Of a DNA stretch of 59,389 bases, positions 2,748 to 20,565 are shown in pieces. The stretch's first letter is position 1, and the number at the start of each line of letters is the position of its first letter. This stretch comes from a bacterium (GTDB taxonomy: Bacteria; Cyanobacteriota; Vampirovibrionia; Gastranaerophilales; CAZEDP01), in contig JAZDPZ010000068.1 of assembly GCA_043797105.1 (NCBI GenBank), positions 1-59,389 on the forward strand, in the 5' to 3' direction. The translations under genes were made by a program, and so were the position numbers. The notes beneath the pieces are model-generated. The model saw only the letters and a list, made by a program, of their open reading frames with translations, did not search any database and had not been told where the DNA came from.

Positions 2748-3644
2748 ATGCTTTCCAAGAAAAGTAAAAAAAAATTACTAATTGCAATGATTATTGGCGC
2801 AGTTTTTGCTTTTGCAATATATGATAATTTAAAAAAAACAAAGATTCCGGAGCCAAATTTTAATATCCCGAATAATGCTAATCTCTTGGCGCAAAAACTT
2901 CCTGTTCAAGCTCCTCCTAAACTTGTAAAAGTTGTAGCGGTAAAAAATGATCAAAAAGCCGGGACCAAATTAACTGCTGATATGATTGAAATCAAAGAAA
3001 TAGGACTTGAAAATGCTCCAAAAGATAGTTTTAGTGATATTAACGCTGTAATTGACAAGGTAGTTTCAAAAAATGTGCTTGCAAATGAAATTTTGATTGC
3101 ATCTATAGTTCAAAAATCTAAAAATCTTCCTATACCTGTTGATATGAGGTCTATAACTATTCCGATTGAATATATACAAGGTCTTTCATCTTATATTTCA
3201 GTAGAGTCAAAAGTAGATATTATTTCTGCTTCAAAAGAAGCTGATGCTATGCCTCCGTTAATTCTCCAAAATACAAAAATAATATCTTTAGAAAGTTCAC
3301 AAGGAAGTTTTACTGATAATTCCATTTCAATTGCTCAAGCTTCGGCAATTACATTTGAAATTCCTGCAAAATTTGCATCAAGACTGGTTAAAGCTATGAT
3401 AGACGGAAAATTGCAAATAATATGCAGGGGTTTAGGTGATAACAAAATTATTTCTGAAGGAGGTTCTTCTCCCGCTTCAAAAAAAATCACTATTCCTCCT
3501 CCTCCATTCGATATTGAGTCTTTAAAAAACAGGGGTTTTAATACTTTGCCTGAACCGGCAGCACCCTTTAATCCCACTCCTAAAAAAGTAGAAATTATAC
3601 AGTCAAATGTTAAGAGTGAGTTAACTTTTGATAATGATTTATAA
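2748..3644 (+). CDS. cpaB: Flp pilus assembly protein CpaB/RcpC
   Basis: N-terminal TM, SAF-like VVAVKND..AGTKLT, IP..MRSITI...VDII; first gene of the tad operon. Confidence 0.85.
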   Translation: MLSKKSKKKLLIAMIIGAVFAFAIYDNLKKTKIPEPNFNIPNNANLLAQKLPVQAPPKLVKVVAVKNDQKAGTKLTADMIEIKEIGLENAPKDSFSDINAVIDKVVSKNVLANEILIASIVQKSKNLPIPVDMRSITIPIEYIQGLSSYISVESKVDIISASKEADAMPPLILQNTKIISLESSQGSFTDNSISIAQASAITFEIPAKFASRLVKAMIDGKLQIICRGLGDNKIISEGGSSPASKKITIPPPPFDIESLKNRGFNTLPEPAAPFNPTPKKVEIIQSNVKSELTFDNDL

Positions 3645-3661
3645 GAGGTAATTTTAAGAAA

Positions 3662-5102
3662 TTGATAAAAAAATTAATAAAAAATAACATATCGAATTTT
3701 AGATTGCTTCGTTTCGCTCGCAATGACATTAGTATAATATTATTTTTAGCTGTCTTTCTGATTAATAGTGTGTGTTTTGCCGCTAATTTGCCTGATATTA
3801 GAGGTTTAAATATTGATCCTGTTTCTATTCAGCAGGATAATTATCAAAAATCTTTTCAAAAAAATTCAACCAAAAATCAAAAAAAAATCTTTCCAAAAAT
3901 CAGAATCTTATTCTGGAAGTTCAGCTACTTTAAGAGGAGGGATTTCCGAGCTGGTTGCATTTGTTGGAAAATCACAGCTGATTAGATTTGATGAACCTAT
4001 TAAAAGATTATCTATAACAAGCCCGGCTCTTGCTGATATAATACTGCTTTCACCGCAGGAAATGCTGTTAAATGGTAAATCAACTGGTGTAACAAGCTTG
4101 ATTATATGGGGTGAAACCGGAGATCCCGTATTTTTTGATCTTAATGTTAAAAATGATCCTGCCTTGGTTTTAAATGCTATTAAATCAATAACGCCTAATG
4201 AAAATTTAAATTTAAAATTTATGGGAAATTCTATTATTCTTTCAGGGAAAGTTTCTTCTATTTTAAAAACAAATAAAATAAAAAGTTTAGTGGAGGCTTA
4301 TGGCTTTAAACTGGTAGATTTAGCAGAAAGTTTAACTCCTCAGGTTGTTTTAGAGATTAAAGTAGCTGAAGCGAGCAGATCTTTTACAAAAGGATTTAGC
4401 GGAAACTATGGTTACAGTGATATGGCATCTTCATTTCCTGGAAATTTTAATATTCAGAATACTAATCCTCTTGAACCAGGATATGGAGGAACTTTTTCAG
4501 GTTCTTCCAGCGGTATACAATTTTTTGTTCACAGACCAAATGATAAACCTTATTTAAGTATTTCATCTGTTTATACAGCGGCTGAATCAAGAGGACTTAT
4601 TAAAACTCTTGCTGAACCTAAACTGGTTGCAGCGCATGGAAGCTCAGCCAGCTTTAATGCGGGCAAAGAACTTCCTGTTCCTTCAGGAACTACTGAAAAT
4701 GGATCAGTAACCTTTGAATATAAAAATGTCGGTGTTAATGTCGAGTTTAAACCAATTGTTCTTGAAGAAACCAATAGAATTTTGCTGGATATTAGCCCGG
4801 AAGTGAGTGAACCGGATTCAAGCACAGCTTTAGGACAAGTAGGCGGTATTTCAATATACGGATTTAAAACAAGAAAAGCTAAAACAACCGTTGAATTAAA
4901 TGATGGGCAAACTTTGGTTATAGCCGGACTGCTTCAGAGATCAGACGCTTCAAATAAAACACTAATACCAATAATGGGAGATATTCCGATTATTGGAAAA
5001 TTATTCAGCAGTAATAATTTTAATAAAGGAGAAACCGAGCTTGTGATTTTCGTAACTCCCAGAATTATCATGCCAAATAGCATCAAAGAAAATGGGGTTT
5101 AA
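3662..5102 (+). CDS. cpaC: Tad secretin CpaC/RcpA, split by a +1 frameshift in A9 (3879-3887)
   Basis: ORF 3662 supplies the signal peptide (..NSVCFA); ORF 3813 has LAEPKL..G..ASFNAGKELPVP, TTVEL.DGQTLVIAGL, ETELVIFVTP; removing one A joins them (QKKSFQKSE). Confidence 0.85.
3701..3728. repeat. REP-like palindromic element (AGATTGCTTCG..TCGCAATGACA) inside cpaC
   Basis: Same family as copies at 27757, 34315, 43008 and 46322. Confidence 0.75.
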
Positions 5103-5105
5103 TAT

Positions 5106-6317
5106 ATGGACTTAATACCGGCGATTATAATTGATACTGATGATGGAGCAAGATATACTTTAAAAACTAATGTTGAAGCTTCAAATATCATGAAGGTTAT
5201 TGGGGATTATAATAACCATGTAGCCGGATATAATGCTGTTATTCAGGAAAAACCCGCGGTAGTTTTTCTTGATGTGTCTGAAAATTTAAATCTTTCTATT
5301 GAGATAATAGAAAAAATTTGCTTACATCATAGATTCTGTATAATTTTTGTTTCTTCTTATGAAAGCAGCCCGGAAATTATAATAAAAGCCATGCGAGCAG
5401 GAGCAAGAGAATTTTTAACCAAGCCTATTGATTCTCATGTCTTGATGGCAGCTCTTAAAAAAGCTAAAACGCTTTTAACTGCCGATCCTACTTATAGTCA
5501 ATCCAGTAAAATATTTACGGTATTTAGCAACAAAGGCGGTATTGGCAAAACAACAATAGCTACTAACCTTGCTGTAAGCTTAGCTGACATTACCGGAAAA
5601 AAAGTGGCATTAGTTGATTTGAACCTACAGTTAGGCGATATAACAACTTTTTTGGATATAAGTCCTTCTTTTGATATTTCTTATGTTGTAACTCAGTTAA
5701 GCAGAGTTGATGAAGCTTTTTTACTAAGCACCCTTGAAAAATATAAAAATAAAGAATTATATATTCTTGCTGATCCTCCTTATTTGGAACAAGCGGAAGA
5801 AATAACTTCTGAACAGGTAGCAACGGTTTTAAGCATATTAAAATCAGTATTTTCTTATGTAGTAATTGATACAAGCAGTAATTTTGATAATCAAACTTTA
5901 TGCGCTCTTGACATGGCTGATAATATATTGCTTGTATCAATGATTAATCTGCCTTCAATAAGAAATTCTCAAAGATGCTTAGAATTATTTGAACGTCTTA
6001 ATTACACTAAAGATCAAACTAAATTAATTATAAATCGTTATGTGCCTGATAATGAGATAACTGTAGAAGATGTGGAAGATGCTCTTGGACACTCAATATA
6101 CTGGAAAATTCCAAATAATTATTTTACGGTTATATCTTCAATAAACAGAGGAATACCTCTTTCAATGCTTGAAGCTGATTCAAATATCAGCAAAAATTTT
6201 ATGGAACTGGCTGCTCTATTGAGTAATACAGTTTTAGCTACAGATAAAGCAAATGAAAAAAGTGAAAAATCTTTATTTAAATTTAATATATTTAAATTTT
6301 TTGGTAAAAACAAGTAA
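5106..6317 (+). CDS. cpaE: CpaE/TadZ: receiver domain plus MinD-like ATPase
   Basis: AMRAGAREFLTKP, KGGIGKTT, VDLNLQLGD. Confidence 0.92.
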   Translation: MDLIPAIIIDTDDGARYTLKTNVEASNIMKVIGDYNNHVAGYNAVIQEKPAVVFLDVSENLNLSIEIIEKICLHHRFCIIFVSSYESSPEIIIKAMRAGAREFLTKPIDSHVLMAALKKAKTLLTADPTYSQSSKIFTVFSNKGGIGKTTIATNLAVSLADITGKKVALVDLNLQLGDITTFLDISPSFDISYVVTQLSRVDEAFLLSTLEKYKNKELYILADPPYLEQAEEITSEQVATVLSILKSVFSYVVIDTSSNFDNQTLCALDMADNILLVSMINLPSIRNSQRCLELFERLNYTKDQTKLIINRYVPDNEITVEDVEDALGHSIYWKIPNNYFTVISSINRGIPLSMLEADSNISKNFMELAALLSNTVLATDKANEKSEKSLFKFNIFKFFGKNK

Positions 6318-6353
6318 CTCTTTTACAAACATTTAATTTAGGAGAATCGGACT

Positions 6354-7787
6354 ATGTCTCTTAAAGATCGTCTAAATAAAGAATCGGATGAATCTATATC
6401 TCAAAAAGAATCATTTAAAGCTTATATTTCTTCTACTGATTCAACTTCATCTGAACTCCAGTCATTAAAGGAGAAAATACATTCTAAGCTCATTGATAGA
6501 GTTAATTCGATTGTCACATGGGATAAATATACTGATGAAGAGCAAAAGCAGTTTATAAGACAGTTTATTGAAAAATGCCTGGCTTCTGATTTTGTATCAA
6601 TACCTTTAAGCAGAAATGAAAGGGAATTATTAATACGGGAGATTTTACAGGAAGTAAAAGGTTATGGACCACTTGATCCACTTTTGCTTGATATGACAGT
6701 ATCAGATATCCTTGTAAATGGCGCTAAACATGTCTATGTTGAAAAAGCGGGAAAATTACAGAAAACAAACATTACATTTAAAGATGATACTCATTTAATG
6801 AATATTATCGAGAGAATTGTTTCAAAAATTGGAAGAAGAATTGATGAAAAATCTCCAATGGTTGATGCCAGACTTCCCGACGGTTCAAGGGTAAATGCTA
6901 TTATTCCTCCTCTTGCTATTGATGGTCCATCTTTATCTATAAGAAGGTTTAAAATTAATATTGCAAATTTGGACAGTCTGCTTCAATGGGGATCTATGAC
7001 TACTGCTATGGCTGAAACTTTAAAAACAGCCGTTAAAGGCAGATTAAATATAGTGATATCAGGAGGAACCGGCGCCGGTAAAACAACTCTTTTAAACAGT
7101 CTTTCAACTCAAATTCCGGATGATGAACGTATTGTTACAATAGAAGATTCTGCTGAGCTTGCTCTTCAACAGGAACATGTCGTAAGGCTTGAAACCAGAC
7201 CTCCAAATATTGAAGGAGAAGGCGCCATAACTACAAGAGATTTGGTTATAAATTCCCTTAGAATGCGACCTGACCGTATTATAATTGGAGAATGCAGAGG
7301 AGCAGAAACTTTGGATATGCTACAAGCTATGAATACAGGACATGATGGTTCATTAACTACTCTCCATGCCAATACTCCCAGGGATGCAATAAGCAGACTT
7401 GAGACTATGGTTATGTTTTCAGGAGTTGAACTTCCTGAAAAAACTATCAGAACCCAACTAAGCTCTGCCATTAATATTATAGTGCAGGTAAGCAGGCTTA
7501 GTGACGGATCTCGCAGAATTACATATATAACAGAAATAGTCGGCATGGAAGGAAATATTATCACCATGCAGGATATATTCAAATGGGAACAATATGGTAT
7601 TGATGAAAACAACAGGGTAGTCGGCTGTCATATGGCTACGGGCGTTAGACCTAAATTTATAGAAAAATGTAAAGCTAAAGGTATGGATATATCAGGAGAT
7701 ATTTTTGATACAAAAACACCTCCGGTTTATCTATGCAATAATCCGCCAAATAAAAAAATGATGCATTTTAAAAGAGATGCGCGTTGA
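6354..7787 (+). CDS. cpaF: Tad ATPase CpaF/TadA
   Basis: VDARLPDGSRVNA, GGTGAGKTT, LRMRPDRIIIGECRG, AMNTGHDG. Confidence 0.97.
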   Translation: MSLKDRLNKESDESISQKESFKAYISSTDSTSSELQSLKEKIHSKLIDRVNSIVTWDKYTDEEQKQFIRQFIEKCLASDFVSIPLSRNERELLIREILQEVKGYGPLDPLLLDMTVSDILVNGAKHVYVEKAGKLQKTNITFKDDTHLMNIIERIVSKIGRRIDEKSPMVDARLPDGSRVNAIIPPLAIDGPSLSIRRFKINIANLDSLLQWGSMTTAMAETLKTAVKGRLNIVISGGTGAGKTTLLNSLSTQIPDDERIVTIEDSAELALQQEHVVRLETRPPNIEGEGAITTRDLVINSLRMRPDRIIIGECRGAETLDMLQAMNTGHDGSLTTLHANTPRDAISRLETMVMFSGVELPEKTIRTQLSSAINIIVQVSRLSDGSRRITYITEIVGMEGNIITMQDIFKWEQYGIDENNRVVGCHMATGVRPKFIEKCKAKGMDISGDIFDTKTPPVYLCNNPPNKKMMHFKRDAR

Positions 7788-7806
7788 GATAACATTGAGA
7801 TAACAA

Positions 7807-8796
7807 ATGAATTTTAATTTATTAATTATTATTATTATTGGAATAATAGCTGTTTGGTTTATCTTAGGTATGGAAGATGGCGAAAATGACTCAGCTGGCA
7901 TAGATAAACGACTTTCTGAGATCAAAAATAGAACTAAAGGCATTACTAATGCTGAACAAACAGCAAAAAAAAACATTGCGAGTATTCTTCTTGAAGATAC
8001 AGAATATAAAATCAGCTTGTTGGGAAATATACTCAAAAATATTAAAATTACTGATAAAATCAAAAAAATGTTGAAAATTGCAGGTATAAGAATTACTGTT
8101 GATATTTTTTTGTTAATATCAATAGGATGTGGCATTCCTTTTTTTCTGCCGGTATTTATTGTATCTCCGGCAAAAGCAGCTTTGTTTATTCCTATTGGAG
8201 TGATTTTTATATTCATTCCTTTTGTTATTGTTAAATCAAAAAATAAAAAAAGACTGCATATGTTTACCCAGCAATTTCCTGAAGCATTAGGATTAATGTG
8301 CAGTTCTTTAAGAGCAGGACATTCTTTAGTAGCTTCATTTCAAATGATTGTGCAGGAAATGCCTGATCCTATTTCACAAATTTTTAAAGTTGTAGTAGAT
8401 GATGTTGCGCTTGGCAGAGATACAAGAACAGCTCTTGAAAATATGGTGGAATATATGCCGGATAGTATGGATTTACGATTTTTCGTCACAGCAGTTCTTA
8501 TTCAGAGAGAAATAGGCGGTAATTTAACAGAAATTCTTGATAGTCTAAGTTTTACCATAAGAGAAAGATTTAGATTACTTGGACAAATTGCAACTCAAAC
8601 AGCCCAGGCAAAACTTTCAGGCATTGTTTTGGGACTTGCGCCTATTATTATCGCTTTAATATTGCTCGTTTTAAATCCAGCATACCTGGAAGCTTTATAT
8701 AAAACATTAATGGGAATAATAGCCTTGGGGGTTGCTATTGTTCTTGAACTCATAGGCTTCTTTGTAATTATGAAAATAACTCAAATTAGAGTATAA
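7807..8796 (+). CDS. tadB: Tad inner-membrane platform protein TadB
   Basis: QFPEAL..M.SSLRAG, IQREIGGNL.EIL. Confidence 0.93.
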   Translation: MNFNLLIIIIIGIIAVWFILGMEDGENDSAGIDKRLSEIKNRTKGITNAEQTAKKNIASILLEDTEYKISLLGNILKNIKITDKIKKMLKIAGIRITVDIFLLISIGCGIPFFLPVFIVSPAKAALFIPIGVIFIFIPFVIVKSKNKKRLHMFTQQFPEALGLMCSSLRAGHSLVASFQMIVQEMPDPISQIFKVVVDDVALGRDTRTALENMVEYMPDSMDLRFFVTAVLIQREIGGNLTEILDSLSFTIRERFRLLGQIATQTAQAKLSGIVLGLAPIIIALILLVLNPAYLEALYKTLMGIIALGVAIVLELIGFFVIMKITQIRV

Positions 8797-8827
8797 ATTA
8801 AAAAATTAAGTCAGGAGACTGAAAAAT

Positions 8828-9759
8828 ATGGAACTTATAATAATTATTATTTTCACTTTTTTAATAGGTTTTGTTATTTATGTATTTTCAGGCAGTCAAA
8901 GTCTTTTACAAAAAAGATTAAAAAAGTTTGACAAGTTTAAGCCAAAGTCTTATATGGAAAATCAGTTTAAAGAATCTGATATAAAAGATAAAATTATAGA
9001 ATTTGTAGAACCTATGGTTCGAAAAAATATAAAGCAGGTAAAACTGGATTCAGCAAGGCAATTATTATTACAGGCAGGTGAGCCTTATACAAACGAAGAT
9101 GTTTTCAGATTTATAACAAAAAAAATAATTTATGCTGGAATAGGACTTGGGGTTGCTTTGTTTTCGGCTGTTCTAGGAGATACAGACGCAAATATCAAGA
9201 TAATATTATGTATTCTTATTCCTGCGGTTTTTTATAAACTTTCTGATATGGTTTAAAACGAAAAATTAAAAAGAAAGCTGAAGAAATAACTTATAATTTA
9301 CCGGATGCTCTTGATTTGTTAACTATATGCGTAGAAGCAGGATTAGGTTTGGATGCTGCGCTTACAAGAGTAGCTCAAGAACAAAAAAGAACTTCCCCTA
9401 TTCTTGCAAAAGAATTTGGAAGAGTAAGTAAAGATATTCTTTCCGGAATATCAAGACAGGAAGCTTTTAGACATTTGGCAATGAGAAATAATGTGGCTGA
9501 TTTAAAATCACTGGTAGCTCTTTTAATACAGACTGATAAACTAGGCACAAGCGTTGCTCAATCTTTAAGAATATATTCTGATACTGTCAGAACACGAAGA
9601 AGACAAAGAATAGAAACTATTGCCGCTAAAGCCAGCGTCAAAATGGTTATTCCTCTTGTGCTTTTTATTCTTCCCGCTATGTTTATAATAATTTTAACAC
9701 CGGCAGCTCTAAGTCTAATCCAAAATTTCACAGGCGCTAATATGCTACAACAGCAATAA
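8828..9759 (+). CDS. tadC: TadC, split by an apparent 1-nt deletion near 9252-9258
   Basis: The second frame continues LKRKIKKKAEEITYNLPDALDLLTICVEAGLGLD..KMVIPLVLFILP; adding one T at GTTTAAAA fuses both ORFs. Confidence 0.85.
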
Positions 9760-13888: not shown

Positions 13889-14053
13889 TGTTTACCTCAA
13901 ATTGTGTTGTTTAATAATTATAATATGGGAAATTTTTTTGTTACAATAATTTAATAATTTTATTTTTTATGACAATTTTTTATCTTGAATGTTTTAAGTA
14001 TATTAGTAAATTAAAAAAAAGTAGTAAAAATAGAAAAAAGGAAGGTTAAAAAT

Positions 14054-14581
14054 ATGTTATTAAATGTAAGTTCGGCAGGAAATAATGCGCCATCTTTTAC
14101 AAAAGCTCAATCAGAAGAAGAAACAAAATCTCCACAAAAATTCGGAACTTTGCAGCAATTTCCGAGATTTGACATGTATAGTGCTTATGCTCCGCAACAA
14201 GCTCCTAAAAAATCGCATTTTATTAGGAATACTGGAATCGGAGCAGGAATTGGTGCTGGTATAGGTGCTACATTACATCACTTTTTCGGAGGAAAAGCCG
14301 CAGCAATTGAAAGTTTAAAAGCTAATGCAGTTAAAGCTTTGAATGAAGGTAAAGAAGCAACCACAGATTGGTTAAAACAAAATGCTAAAAACATTGAGGG
14401 AAAAGCCAAAGAACTCCTTGAAGCGATGCCTGATAAAGGCAAAGATCTTATAAATCAATTTAAAGGCGGATGGAAATCTTATGGAAAACAAGCAGCAATA
14501 GGCGCAGCAATAGTCGCTGGCACTTACTTGCTATATAAAGGTGTAAAAAAGCTCTTTGGCAGAAAAGGGCAGGAAGCTTAG
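14054..14581 (+). CDS. hypothetical glycine-zipper membrane protein, paralog 1 of 3
   Basis: SPQKFG motif, GIGAGIGAGIGA, C-terminal GAAIVAGTYLLYKGVKKLFGRKGQEA. Confidence 0.85.
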   Translation: MLLNVSSAGNNAPSFTKAQSEEETKSPQKFGTLQQFPRFDMYSAYAPQQAPKKSHFIRNTGIGAGIGAGIGATLHHFFGGKAAAIESLKANAVKALNEGKEATTDWLKQNAKNIEGKAKELLEAMPDKGKDLINQFKGGWKSYGKQAAIGAAIVAGTYLLYKGVKKLFGRKGQEA

Positions 14582-14600
14582 ATTTAGAAACCATTATTCC

Positions 14601-14622
14601 ACAGAGGGCTTAAGCCTTCTGT
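14601..14622. repeat. short hairpin ACAGAGGGC-TTAA-GCCTTCTGT (REP- or terminator-like)
   Basis: Imperfect inverted repeat between paralogs 1 and 2; resembles the palindrome at 42982. Confidence 0.45.
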
Positions 14623-14673
14623 TGCTAGAATTTAATGTTACATATTTTATTAAGAAAAAAAAGGAATAAAATT

Positions 14674-15270
14674 ATGCCGGCAAATATAAATTCTCCACAA
14701 AAATTTGGCAGACAGCAATATCCAGGATTTGAAGCTCCAAAAAAAGATCATGTTCTTACAAAAACTATGTTTGCAGCTGGTACTGGAGGGTTAATCGGTG
14801 GTTTATTGCATCATTCTGCTGGAACAAATGAGAATATTCGAAAAGCAACAGAAGAAATTTTTTCATCTCGCATCATAGGACGGATGAGAATAAGAGAAAA
14901 TATAGATGCAATTCGTGAAAAACTCAATACACCAGAAATTAAAGAGATGATTGGCAAACTGGAAGCAGCTGGAAAAACTTCAAGGCAAGCATTAAAAGAA
15001 GCTAAAGACTCAGTATTATCCAGTTTGGGACTTAAAAATCAGGTAAGCAATGAATGGCTGGAAAAAAGTAAGAACACAATAAATGAAAAACTCAAAGGAA
15101 TTATGGATACTGAGGTTGCTAAGAAATGCATGAAAGAATACAAAGAATTTATGAGATCGGGAAAATCTTATATAAGACCAGTAGCGTATGGCGCGGCAAT
15201 AGTCGCTGGTACTTATTTGCTATATAAAGGAATAAAAAAGCTCTTTGGTAAAAAGGGACAGGAAGCTTAG
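14674..15270 (+). CDS. hypothetical membrane protein, paralog 2 of 3
   Basis: Start ATG 14674 after AAGGA; NSPQKFG, GTGGLIGG, GAAIVAGTYLLYKGIKKLFGKKGQEA. Confidence 0.85.
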   Translation: MPANINSPQKFGRQQYPGFEAPKKDHVLTKTMFAAGTGGLIGGLLHHSAGTNENIRKATEEIFSSRIIGRMRIRENIDAIREKLNTPEIKEMIGKLEAAGKTSRQALKEAKDSVLSSLGLKNQVSNEWLEKSKNTINEKLKGIMDTEVAKKCMKEYKEFMRSGKSYIRPVAYGAAIVAGTYLLYKGIKKLFGKKGQEA

Positions 15271-15293
15271 ATTAAATAAAAAAGGATAAAAAT

Positions 15294-15791
15294 ATGTTAT
15301 CAAATGTAAGTTCAACAAGAAACAATATAATATCTTTAGAAAAAAATTCTCCACAAAAATTCGGCGCACAGCAATATTTATCAGGATTTGATATGTATAA
15401 TTTTGCTCCGCCGCAAGTTCCTAAAAAGAAGTCTTCTCGAGTTATAAGTGCCATAAAAGATACTATAATTTCAGCGGGTAGCGGTGCTTTAGTATATGCT
15501 GCTCTTGCTAAGGGAGCAGTATATGAATATATAAAAAAGACTGCCAAAATGGAGACTATAACGCAACTCGGTGGAAAAAATACTAAAGAATGGATAAAAG
15601 CACATAAGCAAGAAATAGCTAAGAAAACAAAAGAAATGAATAAAGAAATAATAGATAGCTTTAAGAATCTTGGTGTTACTTACGGAAAGATTGCATTATT
15701 AGGAGCAGCAATAACCACTAGCACTTTCTTGATCTATAAAGGAATAAAAAAGATTATTGATAAACTGGGTAAAAAAGGGCAGGAAGCTTAG
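15294..15791 (+). CDS. hypothetical membrane protein, paralog 3 of 3
   Basis: MLSNVSS..NSPQKFG..FDMY..AP.Q.PKK; GAAITTSTFLIYKGIKKIIDKLGKKGQEA. Confidence 0.85.
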   Translation: MLSNVSSTRNNIISLEKNSPQKFGAQQYLSGFDMYNFAPPQVPKKKSSRVISAIKDTIISAGSGALVYAALAKGAVYEYIKKTAKMETITQLGGKNTKEWIKAHKQEIAKKTKEMNKEIIDSFKNLGVTYGKIALLGAAITTSTFLIYKGIKKIIDKLGKKGQEA

Positions 15792-15824: not shown

Positions 15825-16491
15825 TTATCTGGGAGAGGATTTTATCCTCTCTAAAATTTTTTTTATTATATAAGGTAAAAAATTTATTAAAATCAATAAA
15901 ATTATTACAATAATAATTTTAATAATAGTGTTTATCTCGCCACTTAAAGCTGATCTGCCGGCATAACCCAAATAAACATAAGTAAATGTACCTGGCAGTA
16001 AACCAAATAACGTAGCCAAAAAAAAAAGTTTTAAGCGGTATATCTGTTAATCCAAAAATAAAATTTTGAATATTAAAATGAAGAACAGGCGTAATTCTTG
16101 CTATTACTATATATTTCCAGCCATTTATTTTAACTTTTTCCTGGATCAAAACAATTTTTTGGGAATGTATTTTGTTTAAACGTTTTCTCAAAAAATGTTT
16201 ACTTATAAGAAAAGCAATGCAAGACCCTAATGTCGCGCCAATAAGAGAATATAAACCACCCCAAACCGGTCCGAATAATACTCCTCCAATAGTTGATAAA
16301 AACGTTACAGGTATGAAAATTACTGAGCCAAAAATATAAATTGAGATAAATATTAAAGGAGCAAAAACTCCAAAATTTTTTATAAAAATAAGGAATTTAT
16401 TTATGTCAATTTCTCTTCTTATTCCAAATAAAAATAGTAAAATTACTATGATTATAAGACCTATTGATAAGCCTAACTTGTATTTCAGCAT
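15825..16491 (-). CDS. TVP38/TMEM64 (DedA/VTT) family membrane protein, +1 frameshift in T10 (16018-16027)
   Basis: GGVLFGPVWG..YSLIGATLGS, RITP..F...N...GLT; removing one T gives KTFFLATLFGLLPGTF. Confidence 0.85.
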
Positions 16492-16692: not shown

Positions 16693-17964
16693 ATGATTCA
16701 GCATATAGGCGAAATCTTATACGAAGTAAGAGTAGTAATACCTAAACGCATAGATGATTATGAACCGATTGTCGGCAAAGAAAAAGTTGAAAAAGTTAAA
16801 GCGCTTGCCAAACCGCTCCAGAATAAAAAAGTGCTTCATCTTAATGCTACTGCTTATGGTGGTGGGGTTGCAGAATTATTAAAAACACAGGTTGCTCTTA
16901 TGCAGGACCTTGGTCTGTATGTTGACTGGTATACAATGAGAGCAAATTCCGAGTTTTTTGAAGTGACAAAGATGTTTCATAATGCTTTGCAAGGACAACC
17001 GACGGTAATTTCCGATGAACAAAAGCAAATTTATCTTGATGGAGTTATAAATAACGCAAGAGGAATTATTGAAAGTTATGATTATGTTATTGTCCATGAT
17101 CCTCAGCCTTTAGCTATTCTCAATTATGTTGCATCTCCGACGGGTAAATGGATTTGGCGTTGTCATATTGATACTTCCGAGCCTAACCAAGAAATCTGGG
17201 ATTTTTTGTATCCTTATATGCAAAACTATGATGCTGTTGTATTTACACTTGAAGAATTTGTAAAAGAAAATGCAAATTTTAAAAATATTGCTTTTATTGC
17301 GCCGTCAATAGACCCTTTTAGTCCAAAAAATACTGATATGTCAGAAGAAGATATAAATAATCTGATGCTAAGCTATAATATTGACCCGGATAGACCTTTA
17401 TTGGTTCAGGTTTCCAGATTTGATCCCTGGAAAGACCCTCTTGGGGTTATTGATGTATATAGAAACATAAAATACGGTCAGGTTAAAAAGGGCATTAAAG
17501 GATTACAGCTTGCTTTAGTAGGAAGTATGGCTCATGATGATCCGGAAGGCTGGATTATATATGACAGAGTTATGAGAAAAGCAGGTGAGGATTTTGATCT
17601 TAATGTTTATACAAATTTTCATAATGTTGGTGATATTGGAGTAAAAGCTTTTCAATTTGCCGCTGATGTAGTTTTGCAAAAATCAATTAAAGAAGGGTTT
17701 GGACTTACGGTAACAGAAGCTCTTTGGAAAGAAAAACCGGTTGTAGGAGGAAAAGCAGGCGGCATTAAACTTCAGATCAAAGATGGTGTAAATGGTTTTC
17801 TTGTTTCAAATACGCAGGAAGCAACAGAAAAGTCTTTATATCTGCTTCAACATCCTGATGAAGCAAAAAAAATGGGAGAGGCAGGAAAACAAATTGTAAA
17901 GGATAATTTTTTATCAATAAGACAGATTGAAGATTATTTGACACTGTTTAATAATCTCAACTAA
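16693..17964 (+). CDS. treT: trehalose synthase (TreT-type GT4 glycosyltransferase)
   Basis: NAT..GGGVAE, HDPQP, WRCHID, QVSRFDPWKDP, MAHDDPEG, EGFGLTVTEALWK. Confidence 0.9.
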   Translation: MIQHIGEILYEVRVVIPKRIDDYEPIVGKEKVEKVKALAKPLQNKKVLHLNATAYGGGVAELLKTQVALMQDLGLYVDWYTMRANSEFFEVTKMFHNALQGQPTVISDEQKQIYLDGVINNARGIIESYDYVIVHDPQPLAILNYVASPTGKWIWRCHIDTSEPNQEIWDFLYPYMQNYDAVVFTLEEFVKENANFKNIAFIAPSIDPFSPKNTDMSEEDINNLMLSYNIDPDRPLLVQVSRFDPWKDPLGVIDVYRNIKYGQVKKGIKGLQLALVGSMAHDDPEGWIIYDRVMRKAGEDFDLNVYTNFHNVGDIGVKAFQFAADVVLQKSIKEGFGLTVTEALWKEKPVVGGKAGGIKLQIKDGVNGFLVSNTQEATEKSLYLLQHPDEAKKMGEAGKQIVKDNFLSIRQIEDYLTLFNNLN

Positions 17965-18048
17965 AATCGATTTAAAGAGTTACCTATTCCCAAAAATATT
18001 TTTTAAATTCAATTTGGGACTTGTATAAATTAGCCGGAGAAAATAATA

Positions 18049-20565
18049 ATGCTGGATAAAGAATATTTTTTAACTATTCATGGACATTTTTATCAACCGC
18101 CCCGTGAAAATCCCTGGTTAGAATCAATTGAGCTACAGGACAGCGCTCTTCCTTTCCATGACTGGAATGAAAGAATAGCTTATGAATGTTATACTCCTAA
18201 TTCTGTTTCAAGAATAGTTGATTCTAAAAATCATATTTTTGATATTGTGAATAATTATGCATTAATAAGCTTTAACTTTGGTCCAACGCTTTTGTCATGG
18301 CTTGAAAATCATGTTCCGACAACTTATGAAAGAATAATTAATGCGGACCGTTATAGCCTGGAAGAACATTCAGGACATGGCAACGCTATTGCTCAGGTAT
18401 ATAATCATATAATCTTGCCCCTTGCAAATGAAAGGGATAAATATACTCAAGTTATATGGGGAATAAAGGATTTTCAATATCGCTTCGGCAGAAAATCCGA
18501 AGGAATGTGGCTTTCTGAAACTGCTGTTGATGATGATACTTTGAGAGTTTTGGCGGATTGCGGCGTAAGATTTACGATTCTTTCTCCGCATCAGGCATCT
18601 AAAATAAGACCTATGGGCGATCAAGCCTGGATTGACGTCAGCTGGGCAAATATTGATCCGGGTCAGGCTTATAGATACTATTTAAAAGATGATACCGACA
18701 GATATATTGATTTATTTTTCTATGATGGTTCAATATCTAAATCTGTTGCGTTTGAAAATTTGCTGCATAATGGAGACAGGTTTATTAACAGGCTTAAAGA
18801 CGGCATTTCAATATCAAGAAGTTACAATCAACTGACACATATAGCTACGGACGGAGAAAGCTACGGACATCATACGAATTTTGGTGATATGGCTCTTGCC
18901 TATGCTTTAAAAAAACGAGCATCCGAAGTTGGATTTAAGCTGACAAACTATGGCGAATACCTTGAAAAAAATCCTCCTGTATATGAAGTTGATATTAAAG
19001 AACGTTCTTCCTGGAGTTGTTTTCATGGGGTCGGAAGATGGGAAGATGATTGTGGATGTTCTACCGGAGCCGGACCTGGCTGGAATCAAAAATGGAGAAA
19101 ACCTTTAAGAAAAGCTCTGGATTGGTTAAGGGATGAACTTGCGGTTGTTTATGAAAAGCATGCTGAAAAATATCTGAAAGATCCCTGGAAAACCAGAAAT
19201 AAATATATAGATATTATTTTGGATAAAAATGATTTGTCTATTGAGAATTTTTGTTCTCATGAGGCTCTTAAAAAACTGTCTAAAACCGAAATGGTCAATG
19301 TAATCAAGCTTCTTGAAATGCAAAGGCATGCAATGCTTATGTATACAAGCTGCGGATGGTTTTTTGCCGATATATCAGGCATTGAAACAGTTCAGATTTT
19401 AAAATATGCGGCAAGAGCTATGCAGATAGCCGAAGAATTTTCAGAAATTGATCTTGAACCAAGTTTTTTGGAAAAACTGGCAGAAGCAAAAAGTAATATA
19501 CAAAAATACGGAACAGGAAAAGATATTTATCTTAAATGCGTTAAACCTTCAATAGTAAGTATTAAACAGGTAGTCGGACACTGGGCAATCAGCTCTTTAT
19601 TTGAAGAATATAATGATGAAACAGAAGTATATTGCTATAATATAAAGTCTATTGACTATCGTAAGGCGAGAAAAAGTAATACAACCTTATTGCTTGGACG
19701 AATTGAAATTACTTCAAGAGTAACTTTAGAACAGCATGACATGATATTTGCTTTACTGCATTTTGGCGGTGAAGATTTTCACTGTGTAATAAGGGGTTTT
19801 GCCGGAAATGTTGAATATAACAGAATTAAAGAAGATCTGATAAGCAAATATTATGCTTTGCCTCTTACAGAAATTATCAGGGGACTGGATGAACATTTTG
19901 GAAGAGAATATTTTACTTTAAAAGATCTGTTTATAGAAGAAAGACGTAAAATTATAAGTATTTTAATAAAAGATCAGCTTGAAAAATTTTCTGCCACATA
20001 TAAAAGCCTGTATGACGAAGGTAAAGGTCCAATGATGCAGCTTCATGAACTCGGACTTCAGGTGCCGGCAGAGTTTAAAATAGCGGCTGAATATGCCCTT
20101 AGTCGTTCTTTTAATGATATTATATTGAATACCGAAGATATAGGAAATCCGGATTTCTTGCAGGAAGCCGTTGAAATAAGCAAGGAAGCTAAAAAAATTA
20201 ATGTATCTCTGGATTATAAACCTTCTAAAGATATTTATAGCTTATATATAACTCAAAAAGTTAAAATCTTTGCGGATAATATGGAAATTCAGCAATGCGA
20301 GAGCATTATTGAGGTATTATCTCTTGCTGATAAATTGGGGTTAAAACTTGATCTGAATGAAGCTCAAAATATTTATTTTAATTCAATTTATAATAAAATT
20401 CCTTATTTAATGGAATCTTTAAAAAAATCAGATACTATCCAGTCAGATAAAAACTTTATAAATACTATTTTAAATTTAGGAGAAAGATTAAGTTTTAATA
20501 TTGAAAGATGTTATAATGAGCTGGATAAATTAGCTTCTCAAATAATCGAGTCCAAATTTTTATAA
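18049..20565 (+). CDS. glycoside hydrolase family 57, DUF3536 type
   Basis: [52 protein letters not shown]. Confidence 0.92.

Follow-up and report, generated by a model that had tools for sequence, protein, structure and literature searches.

In this study, we show that positions 14,054 to 15,791 of contig JAZDPZ010000068.1 (assembly GCA_043797105.1, order Gastranaerophilales) hold three tandem genes, here called g1, g2 and g3, whose small products belong to an undescribed protein family that has no Pfam or NCBIfam model. The window analysed is the whole contig stretch of 59,389 nucleotides. At a probability of roughly 55%, we favour the view that the three products are resident hairpin-type proteins of the cytoplasmic membrane, which arose by a lineage-specific tandem triplication within a family of small basic proteins. 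The features of the locus are given below, where the E-values refer to a 90-sequence family profile, whose match to g1-g3 is partly by construction because the three genes sit in that profile.

14054-14581, plus strand: g1, an open reading frame of 175 amino acids (E 3.0e-26)
14674-15270, plus strand: g2, 198 amino acids (E 2.8e-16)
15294-15791, plus strand: g3, an open reading frame of 165 amino acids (E 1.2e-14)
14129-14146, plus strand: SPQKFG motif of g1, within a disordered leader (residues 1-55)
14231-14287, plus strand: Gly-zipper helix of g1, GIGAGIGAGIGA
14498-14578, plus strand: conserved hydrophobic C-terminus and basic tail of g1, preceded by the charged helical middle
14692-14709, plus strand: SPQKFG motif in the short leader of g2
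14764-14814, plus strand: hydrophobic helix of g2
15187-15267, plus strand: conserved C-terminus of g2, preceded by the longest middle of the three (about 120 amino acids)
15348-15365, plus strand: SPQKFG motif of g3
15459-15509, plus strand: hydrophobic helix of g3
15699-15788, plus strand: conserved C-terminus of g3
14040-14045, plus strand: GGAAGG ribosome-binding site of g1, read from the sequence, 8 nucleotides before the g1 start
14592-14637, plus strand: RNA hairpin in the gap between g1 and g2 (-14.6 kcal/mol, z -2.2; 4 of 200 shuffles fold equally well), without a U-tract
15832-15866, plus strand: terminator-like stem-loop with a T run behind it, at the end of the g1-g3 unit

These are real genes: each has a ribosome-binding site, a terminator stands at the end of the unit, and their GC content (0.32-0.36) is the same as that of the adjoining genes. 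The open reading frame of g2 extends from 14635, and the ATG at 14674 was chosen as its start, since an AGGAA ribosome-binding site lies just before it and similarity to g1 and g3 sets in at that methionine; an AGGA site lies 5' of g3. Upstream of g1 there is an AT-rich intergenic stretch (13889-14053), and a promoter scan gave no signal exceeding shuffle expectation. The hairpin between g1 and g2 is possibly an intra-operon attenuator or stability element. The genome itself (1.53 Mb in 69 contigs, 78.75% complete) holds no copies beyond these three. The exact 175-residue g1 protein was not found in the protein collection, where another start codon may have been used.

The original prediction described the locus as a tandem array of three paralogs, and the same-strand open reading frames bear this out. 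In a search of 5.8-billion proteins g1 retrieves g2 at E 2.3e-15, and at such a value their likeness is homology, not chance. In a MAFFT alignment the other two copies are 43% and 48% identical to g1, and the 43 invariant columns fall mostly in SPQKFG, PKK, the first hydrophobic helix, one tryptophan (W106 of g1) and a GAAI..T.L.YKG.KK..G.KGQEA block, in keeping with the conserved leader, Gly/Ala-rich helix and C-terminus that had been described. All three proteins share one build. It opens with the SPQKFG...PKK leader and a hydrophobic helix rich in Gly and Ala; the charged helical middle then diverges between the copies, and the C-terminus is again conserved, is hydrophobic and carries a basic tail. 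Likeness at the DNA level was also rightly seen: CAGGAAGCTTAGATT runs across the stop codon in g1, g2 and g3, and the start regions of g1 and g3 are 76% identical over 71 nucleotides. Three details had to be amended. The middle does have one invariant tryptophan, but g1 has two tryptophans in all; and the core, which had been called unalignable, is divergent yet alignable, with 14-21 identical residues per 60-72 aligned codons. The hydrophobic segments, for their part, are no more than weakly hydrophobic. SPQKFG-like strings occur elsewhere in the genome only as two internal chance matches.

Beyond the locus, a profile of g1-g3 alone gave weak matches in 6 of 61 related genomes, the own genome counted, and it was this profile that found the members in genomes G016 and G026 (E 3.6e-7 and 1.5e-5), which supports the membership of g1-g3 independently of the 90-sequence profile. 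The relatives' loci are open reading frames of 120-180 amino acids of one build with g1-g3. In its canonical form this build starts with a short N-terminus of polar residues and a Gly/Ala-rich helix, which leads through a QK..LKNP turn into charged helices; a GK.NWK..GK motif follows, and then another Gly/Ala-rich helix, closed by Y[KR]G[IV]KALF and a basic tail. When a 16-sequence profile was run against 1.84 billion cluster representatives, 165 matched at E<=1e-3, 66 at E<=1e-10 and 2 at E<=1e-30; most of the 165 are 105-165 amino acids long, with the architecture unchanged. Across the family, conservation is strongest in the two hydrophobic helices rather than in the amphipathic middle. By reading, at least four members are head-to-tail double modules joined by short basic linkers (P0011, P0035, P0037, P0041), and a few (P0017, P0019, P0143) carry a long Pro/Gln/Tyr-rich leader with a PKK(K) box, as g1-g3 do. 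The C-terminal block GAA..GG.YL.Y[KR]G[IV]K.LF is found in all three copies. Of the GK.NWK..GK motif, g1 keeps a recognisable form (KGGWKSYGK), and g2 and g3 keep a degenerate one. The QK..LKNP turn is not seen in the three copies, its counterpart being HHFFGGK in g1, HHSAGTNEN in g2 and absent in g3; by these motifs g1-g3 are a divergent subgroup of the family.

No name for the family could be recovered, as had been foreseen. Scans of g1-g3 against Pfam, NCBIfam, PHROGs and PADLOC gave nothing above threshold, and full-text searches of the literature found no description of the family. None of the 15 cluster members listed is named by its source, and the clusters hold 1-3 members each. Word-index protein searches returned just 1 and 4 proteins. 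The nearest clusters in the ESM Atlas, which serve as leads only, are unnamed Candidatus Melainabacteria proteins (scores 0.81-0.86), and its named clusters gave no usable match.

The family is almost confined to the Gastranaerophilales among the sampled genomes. Counting a match to the 90-sequence profile at E<=1e-3, we found it in 155 of 401 genomes of the order (140 of the 375 high-quality ones), with one to four matches per genome, usually one. Sampling across the phylum gave matches in 78 of 172 genomes of the order, the own genome counted, versus 7 of 229 outside it, and these seven matches were weak (E 1.2e-5 to 8.8e-4). A search with the family alignment found three loci, two of them labelled Candidatus Gastranaerophilales with proteins the same as at the loci of G016, which belongs to the same order as the own genome, and one from a rumen bacterium. 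The SPQKFG / TYLLYKG subtype itself was not found in other species representatives (42 pattern matches, no relative), and g1-g3 form one clade in a FastTree family tree (SH-like support 0.888); they are therefore a divergent subgroup that was triplicated within the lineage. Tandem or fused copies occur elsewhere too: G026 has a 129-residue gene followed by a two-module gene of 261 residues, and G348 has adjacent matches.

The original prediction went further and took the locus for an effector or toxin cassette, in which exported pore-formers, translocators or other membrane-attacking effectors would leave the cell by a non-Sec route through the FG leader and diversify by core swapping. We consider this improbable. 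Variable cores between conserved ends do lend it some appeal (core dN, the nonsynonymous divergence, is 0.65-0.93), but the synonymous divergence (dS) of the core is saturated at 0.93-1.79, so that its dN/dS is uninformative and cannot be read as positive selection. For the C-terminal block dS is 0.40-0.76 and dN 0.08-0.20, for the leader 0.39-1.13 and 0.20-0.29, and the longest exact DNA matches between the copies are 16, 18 and 22 nucleotides. Ends with a dS of 0.4-1.1 and matches this short indicate that the ends are kept by purifying selection on old duplicates, and for the same reasons recent exchange between the copies is not supported. The dN/dS and recombination check thus went against core swapping, with no sign of current cassette-like exchange of cores in the DNA matches or dS of g1-g3; the somewhat lower dS at the ends allows for ancient conversion there.

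The surroundings of the genes bear on the same question. Outside the triplet, the window holds the following.

2748-9759: Tad/Flp pilus cluster with RcpC/CpaB, a secretin, a response-regulator-fused TadZ-like ATPase, TadA/CpaF and two or three TadB/TadC-type T2SSF proteins
upstream of g1, minus strand: TrpE (anthranilate synthase I) and a tetratricopeptide repeat (TPR) protein
downstream of g3: a VTT/DedA protein, a trehalose synthase and a glycoside hydrolase family 57 (GH57) enzyme

The Tad cluster lies 4.3 kb upstream of g1-g3, which could be taken in favour of export; however, three opposite-strand genes intervene, and no secretion, chaperone, immunity, lysis or mobile gene adjoins the triplet. 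The cluster itself looks complete and lies downstream of riboflavin biosynthesis genes (182-2588). In relatives the neighbours of family members are unrelated housekeeping genes (a thiamine pyrophosphate-dependent enzyme; CysS and a histidine kinase; superoxide dismutase), a setting that, together with mostly one match per genome, speaks against a cassette. A role directed at prey finds no support in the lineage, since the order includes a genome labelled Candidatus Gastranaerophilales, and Gastranaerophilales are known as gut fermenters, not as predators.

Nothing ties the leader to export, or the three proteins to secretion or toxicity. By eye, no hydrophobic core of a Sec, Tat or lipoprotein signal is visible in the first 30-55 residues of g1-g3, and no Flp, holin, translocon, phage or defence signature was significant in the three proteins. 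The cleavage motif of Flp/Tad prepilins is G/XXXXEY, followed at once by a hydrophobic helix, and the g1-g3 leaders do not fit this pattern: the residues after FG are TLQQFP, RQQYPG or AQQYLS, and the first hydrophobic helix begins 18-31 residues further on. Weak translocon-like matches are to a type III secretion translocon model, SseD (NF052420), for g1 (E 0.059), at 13.5 bits against a cut-off of 130, and SctB2 in a distant cyanobacterial match (E 6.9e-5, below cut-off). Glycine zippers occur in some pore-formers such as VacA, and an FG-type N-terminal motif recurs in some relatives, both of which would be compatible with effectors. A similar motif of the 'SFG/NFKG' type returns in a minority of family members, and because of this recurrence the leader is probably functional. 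Starts of the forms '..(N/K)VSFG(Q/N)..', 'NTAFKGY' and 'NFKG' are common in small hypothetical proteins of the order, inside and outside the family (L007, L009, L053:3578-3880, L041, P0012/P0016/P0053/P0092/P0124/P0129), and this motif may be a lineage-wide docking or sorting peptide. In the own genome, 'N..F.G' is not enriched in the first 40 residues of the 1808 open reading frames of at least 80 amino acids (5 and 4 matches in the first two bins of 20 residues, with comparable numbers in later ones).

It is very improbable that g1-g3 are lysis proteins of a holin-like kind or GxxxG peptides akin to bacteriocins. Small proteins with hydrophobic helices and charged tails would suit this explanation, and the canonical relative P0008 has weak matches to Rz-like spanin PHROGs (E 0.033-0.3). 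Yet the vicinity of the three genes contains neither an endolysin nor a phage gene nor a C39 peptidase / ABC exporter, and no double-glycine leader is seen when their sequences are read. Their own PHROG matches reach E 0.023 at best and concern families whose function is unrelated or unknown, none of them a lysis family.

With regard to gene order, 16693-20565 encodes a TreT-type trehalose synthase of glycosyltransferase family 1 and then a GH57/DUF3536 protein. The TreT gene of G001, a genome of the sister genus, is flanked by OtsA-type synthase-like and phosphatase-like genes, judged by sequence alone, and local gene order therefore differs between genera. Synteny does not extend to the sister genus: in G001 and G002, whose contigs are short, no cassette stands beside the TPR or TreT orthologues. 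The 629-residue TPR protein beside g1-g3 has 67 and 55 matching stretches in G001 and G002, which points to what would be a very large TPR repertoire in the lineage.

Among characterised families, several come near to g1-g3 in part. The Gly-zipper proteins (PF13488, PF13441, PF05433) resemble the family in a first helix with GxxxGxxxG / GxGxG, and Gly-zipper_Omp (8), Gly-zipper_YMGG (7) and Rick_17kDa_Anti (3) were the only recurrent matches in a Pfam scan of the 90 members. However, g1-g3 lie under the Gly-zipper cut-offs (g1 reaches 9.5 bits against 28.9 for Gly-zipper_YMGG), and those models describe a single motif, to which the family adds a helix-hairpin-helix module, the QK..LKNP turn and the Y[KR]G[IV]K.LF tail. 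ElaB/YqjD/YgaM (DUF883) are small basic helical tail-anchored stress proteins with a Gly-rich C-terminal anchor; g1-g3 gave no match to DUF883 even at E<=10, and they differ in having two hydrophobic helices and a basic tail after the last one. YtxH, DUF948 and apolipoprotein-like proteins share with the family an N-terminal Gly-rich anchor followed by charged amphipathic helices.

This last likeness leads to an alternative that we consider unlikely: g1-g3 could act peripherally, as amphipathic coat or stress proteins comparable to YtxH, late embryogenesis abundant (LEA) proteins, apolipoproteins or phasins. They would then sit on a storage granule or against the cytoplasmic side of the membrane, without spanning the bilayer. 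All soluble regions of the proteins are basic and the hydrophobic segments are weak, as such a coat would have it, and by position the neighbours are genes of trehalose and glycan metabolism. Moreover, of the seven profile matches outside the order, the five that were read are all cyanobacterial proteins of 195-450 amino acids with a Gly-zipper anchor and 11-residue amphipathic repeats; these have sub-threshold matches to YtxH, DUF948, perilipin and phasin, and one has above-threshold ApoLp-III and Gly-zipper_Omp matches. The repeat-bearing proteins (L048-L052, from G510, G530, G557, G585 and G464) carry their 11-residue 'VKDTV..' repeats in long runs, LEA/apolipoprotein-like. On the other hand, g1 matches YtxH (PF12732) at E 0.26 and 12.2 bits against a cut-off of 37.5, and g2 and g3 do not match it; unlike YtxH-like proteins, g1-g3 have a second conserved hydrophobic helix at the C-terminus and lack 11-residue repeats; and conservation in the family peaks in the hydrophobic helices, not in the amphipathic middle.

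The placement of hairpin-type proteins in the cytoplasmic membrane draws on an enzyme fusion. In G001, the pyruvate phosphate dikinase (locus L008 on contig C11, minus strand) carries an N-terminal extension of about 125 amino acids with an 'NVSFTG' motif and, separated by 5 residues, two hydrophobic helices rich in Ala and Gly; the dikinase of the own genome (C33:19486-20907) has no such extension and begins at the catalytic domain. The extension suggests that the G001 enzyme, which we take to be cytoplasmic, may be membrane-tethered, and a related module fused to a cytoplasmic enzyme would not be expected of exported effectors. Because of this fusion and of the double modules with their short basic linkers, the N- and C-termini of the module would lie on the same, cytoplasmic side, and a helical hairpin anchored in the cytoplasmic membrane is therefore favoured. 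Lysine and arginine flank both ends of the module.

Several observations weigh against such a hairpin. Firstly, the helices are not strongly hydrophobic. The original prediction was right about a two-helix shape with a basic tail, but the segments of g1-g3 have 19-residue Kyte-Doolittle means of only 0.97-1.51, and across the family the medians are 1.27 for the N-terminal and 1.59 for the C-terminal segment, with 3% and 49% reaching 1.6; segments this short and weak do not assure a complete membrane span. Secondly, the middle region is net positive (+4 to +8), and with a basic middle a fully cytoplasmic peripheral arrangement fits as well as a periplasmic loop. Thirdly, the match of the G001 dikinase extension to the family is weak (E 0.0092). 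Finally, AlphaFold2 confidence was low, with a mean predicted local distance difference test (pLDDT) of 54.8 from 16 sequences and 64.7 from 90 and a predicted template modelling score (pTM) of 0.30-0.31, and a Foldseek search against the PDB returned no related fold (one row, E 5). In favour of a helical hairpin, the 90-sequence model predicts helices at 56-77, 82-124, 127-135 and 137-172 with residues 1-55 disordered, and its best pLDDT, 74-85, falls over the C-terminal helix. A sequence-profile search of the PDB was unconvincing, the best match being a tape-measure protein (E 2.3e-4) followed by prion protein, whose hydrophobic Gly/Ala stretch the family profile matches weakly (E>=0.07). 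The charged middle could be either periplasmic, with two full spans, or cytoplasmic, with re-entrant or peripheral helices.

From these patterns we infer how resident hairpin proteins of this kind might be inserted in the membrane and work. In each, a disordered leader would lie in the cytoplasm, ahead of a 'glycine-zipper' helix rich in Gly and Ala; a charged hairpin of helices, 60-120 residues long, would follow, and the second Gly/Ala-rich helix would run into a basic amphipathic tail. The two hydrophobic helices would form a hairpin, inserted in the cytoplasmic membrane or lying on it, with both termini cytoplasmic, and the glycine zippers may drive self-association. The recurrent Gly-zipper matches in Pfam and the weak match to the Gly/Ala stretch of prion protein speak for such zippers. 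We assume that g1-g3 would then serve as resident membrane scaffolds or stress-type proteins, with the variable middle accounting for functional difference between the copies.

The CAAD hairpin, built of two helices, can be joined to cytoplasmic enzymes, and because of the enzyme fusion in G001, in which an Ala/Gly helix pair likewise sits on an enzyme, a functional analogy to hairpin anchors of the CAAD/CURT1 type (PF14159) is attractive. At the sensitivity of these comparisons, homology to CAAD was rejected (hhalign probability 0.12%, no Pfam match, none in the own genome). CAAD was found in none of 27 genomes of the order, the own genome included, versus 27 of 54 other genomes of the phylum searched. 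By analogy only, and as a quite improbable extension, the family might be a Gastranaerophilales-specific hairpin that anchors or shapes membranes, in which oligomerising Gly-rich helix pairs bend the membrane or tether partners as the unrelated CURT1/CAAD or mitochondrial Mic10 do. If this were so, the G001 dikinase fusion would be an example of tethering, the FG-type motif would be a docking peptide, with a different docking surface on each of the three copies.

Since the function is one that we infer, the practical impact of these findings is modest. The Gastranaerophilales are uncultured gut relatives of cyanobacteria whose lineage-specific genes are almost wholly uncharacterised. A recurrent family present in about 40% of the genomes sampled from the order is now defined with its motifs and its single, double, long-leader and enzyme-fused variants. 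This definition removes a tempting but unsupported 'toxin cassette' label and offers a usable start for a hidden Markov model of the family.

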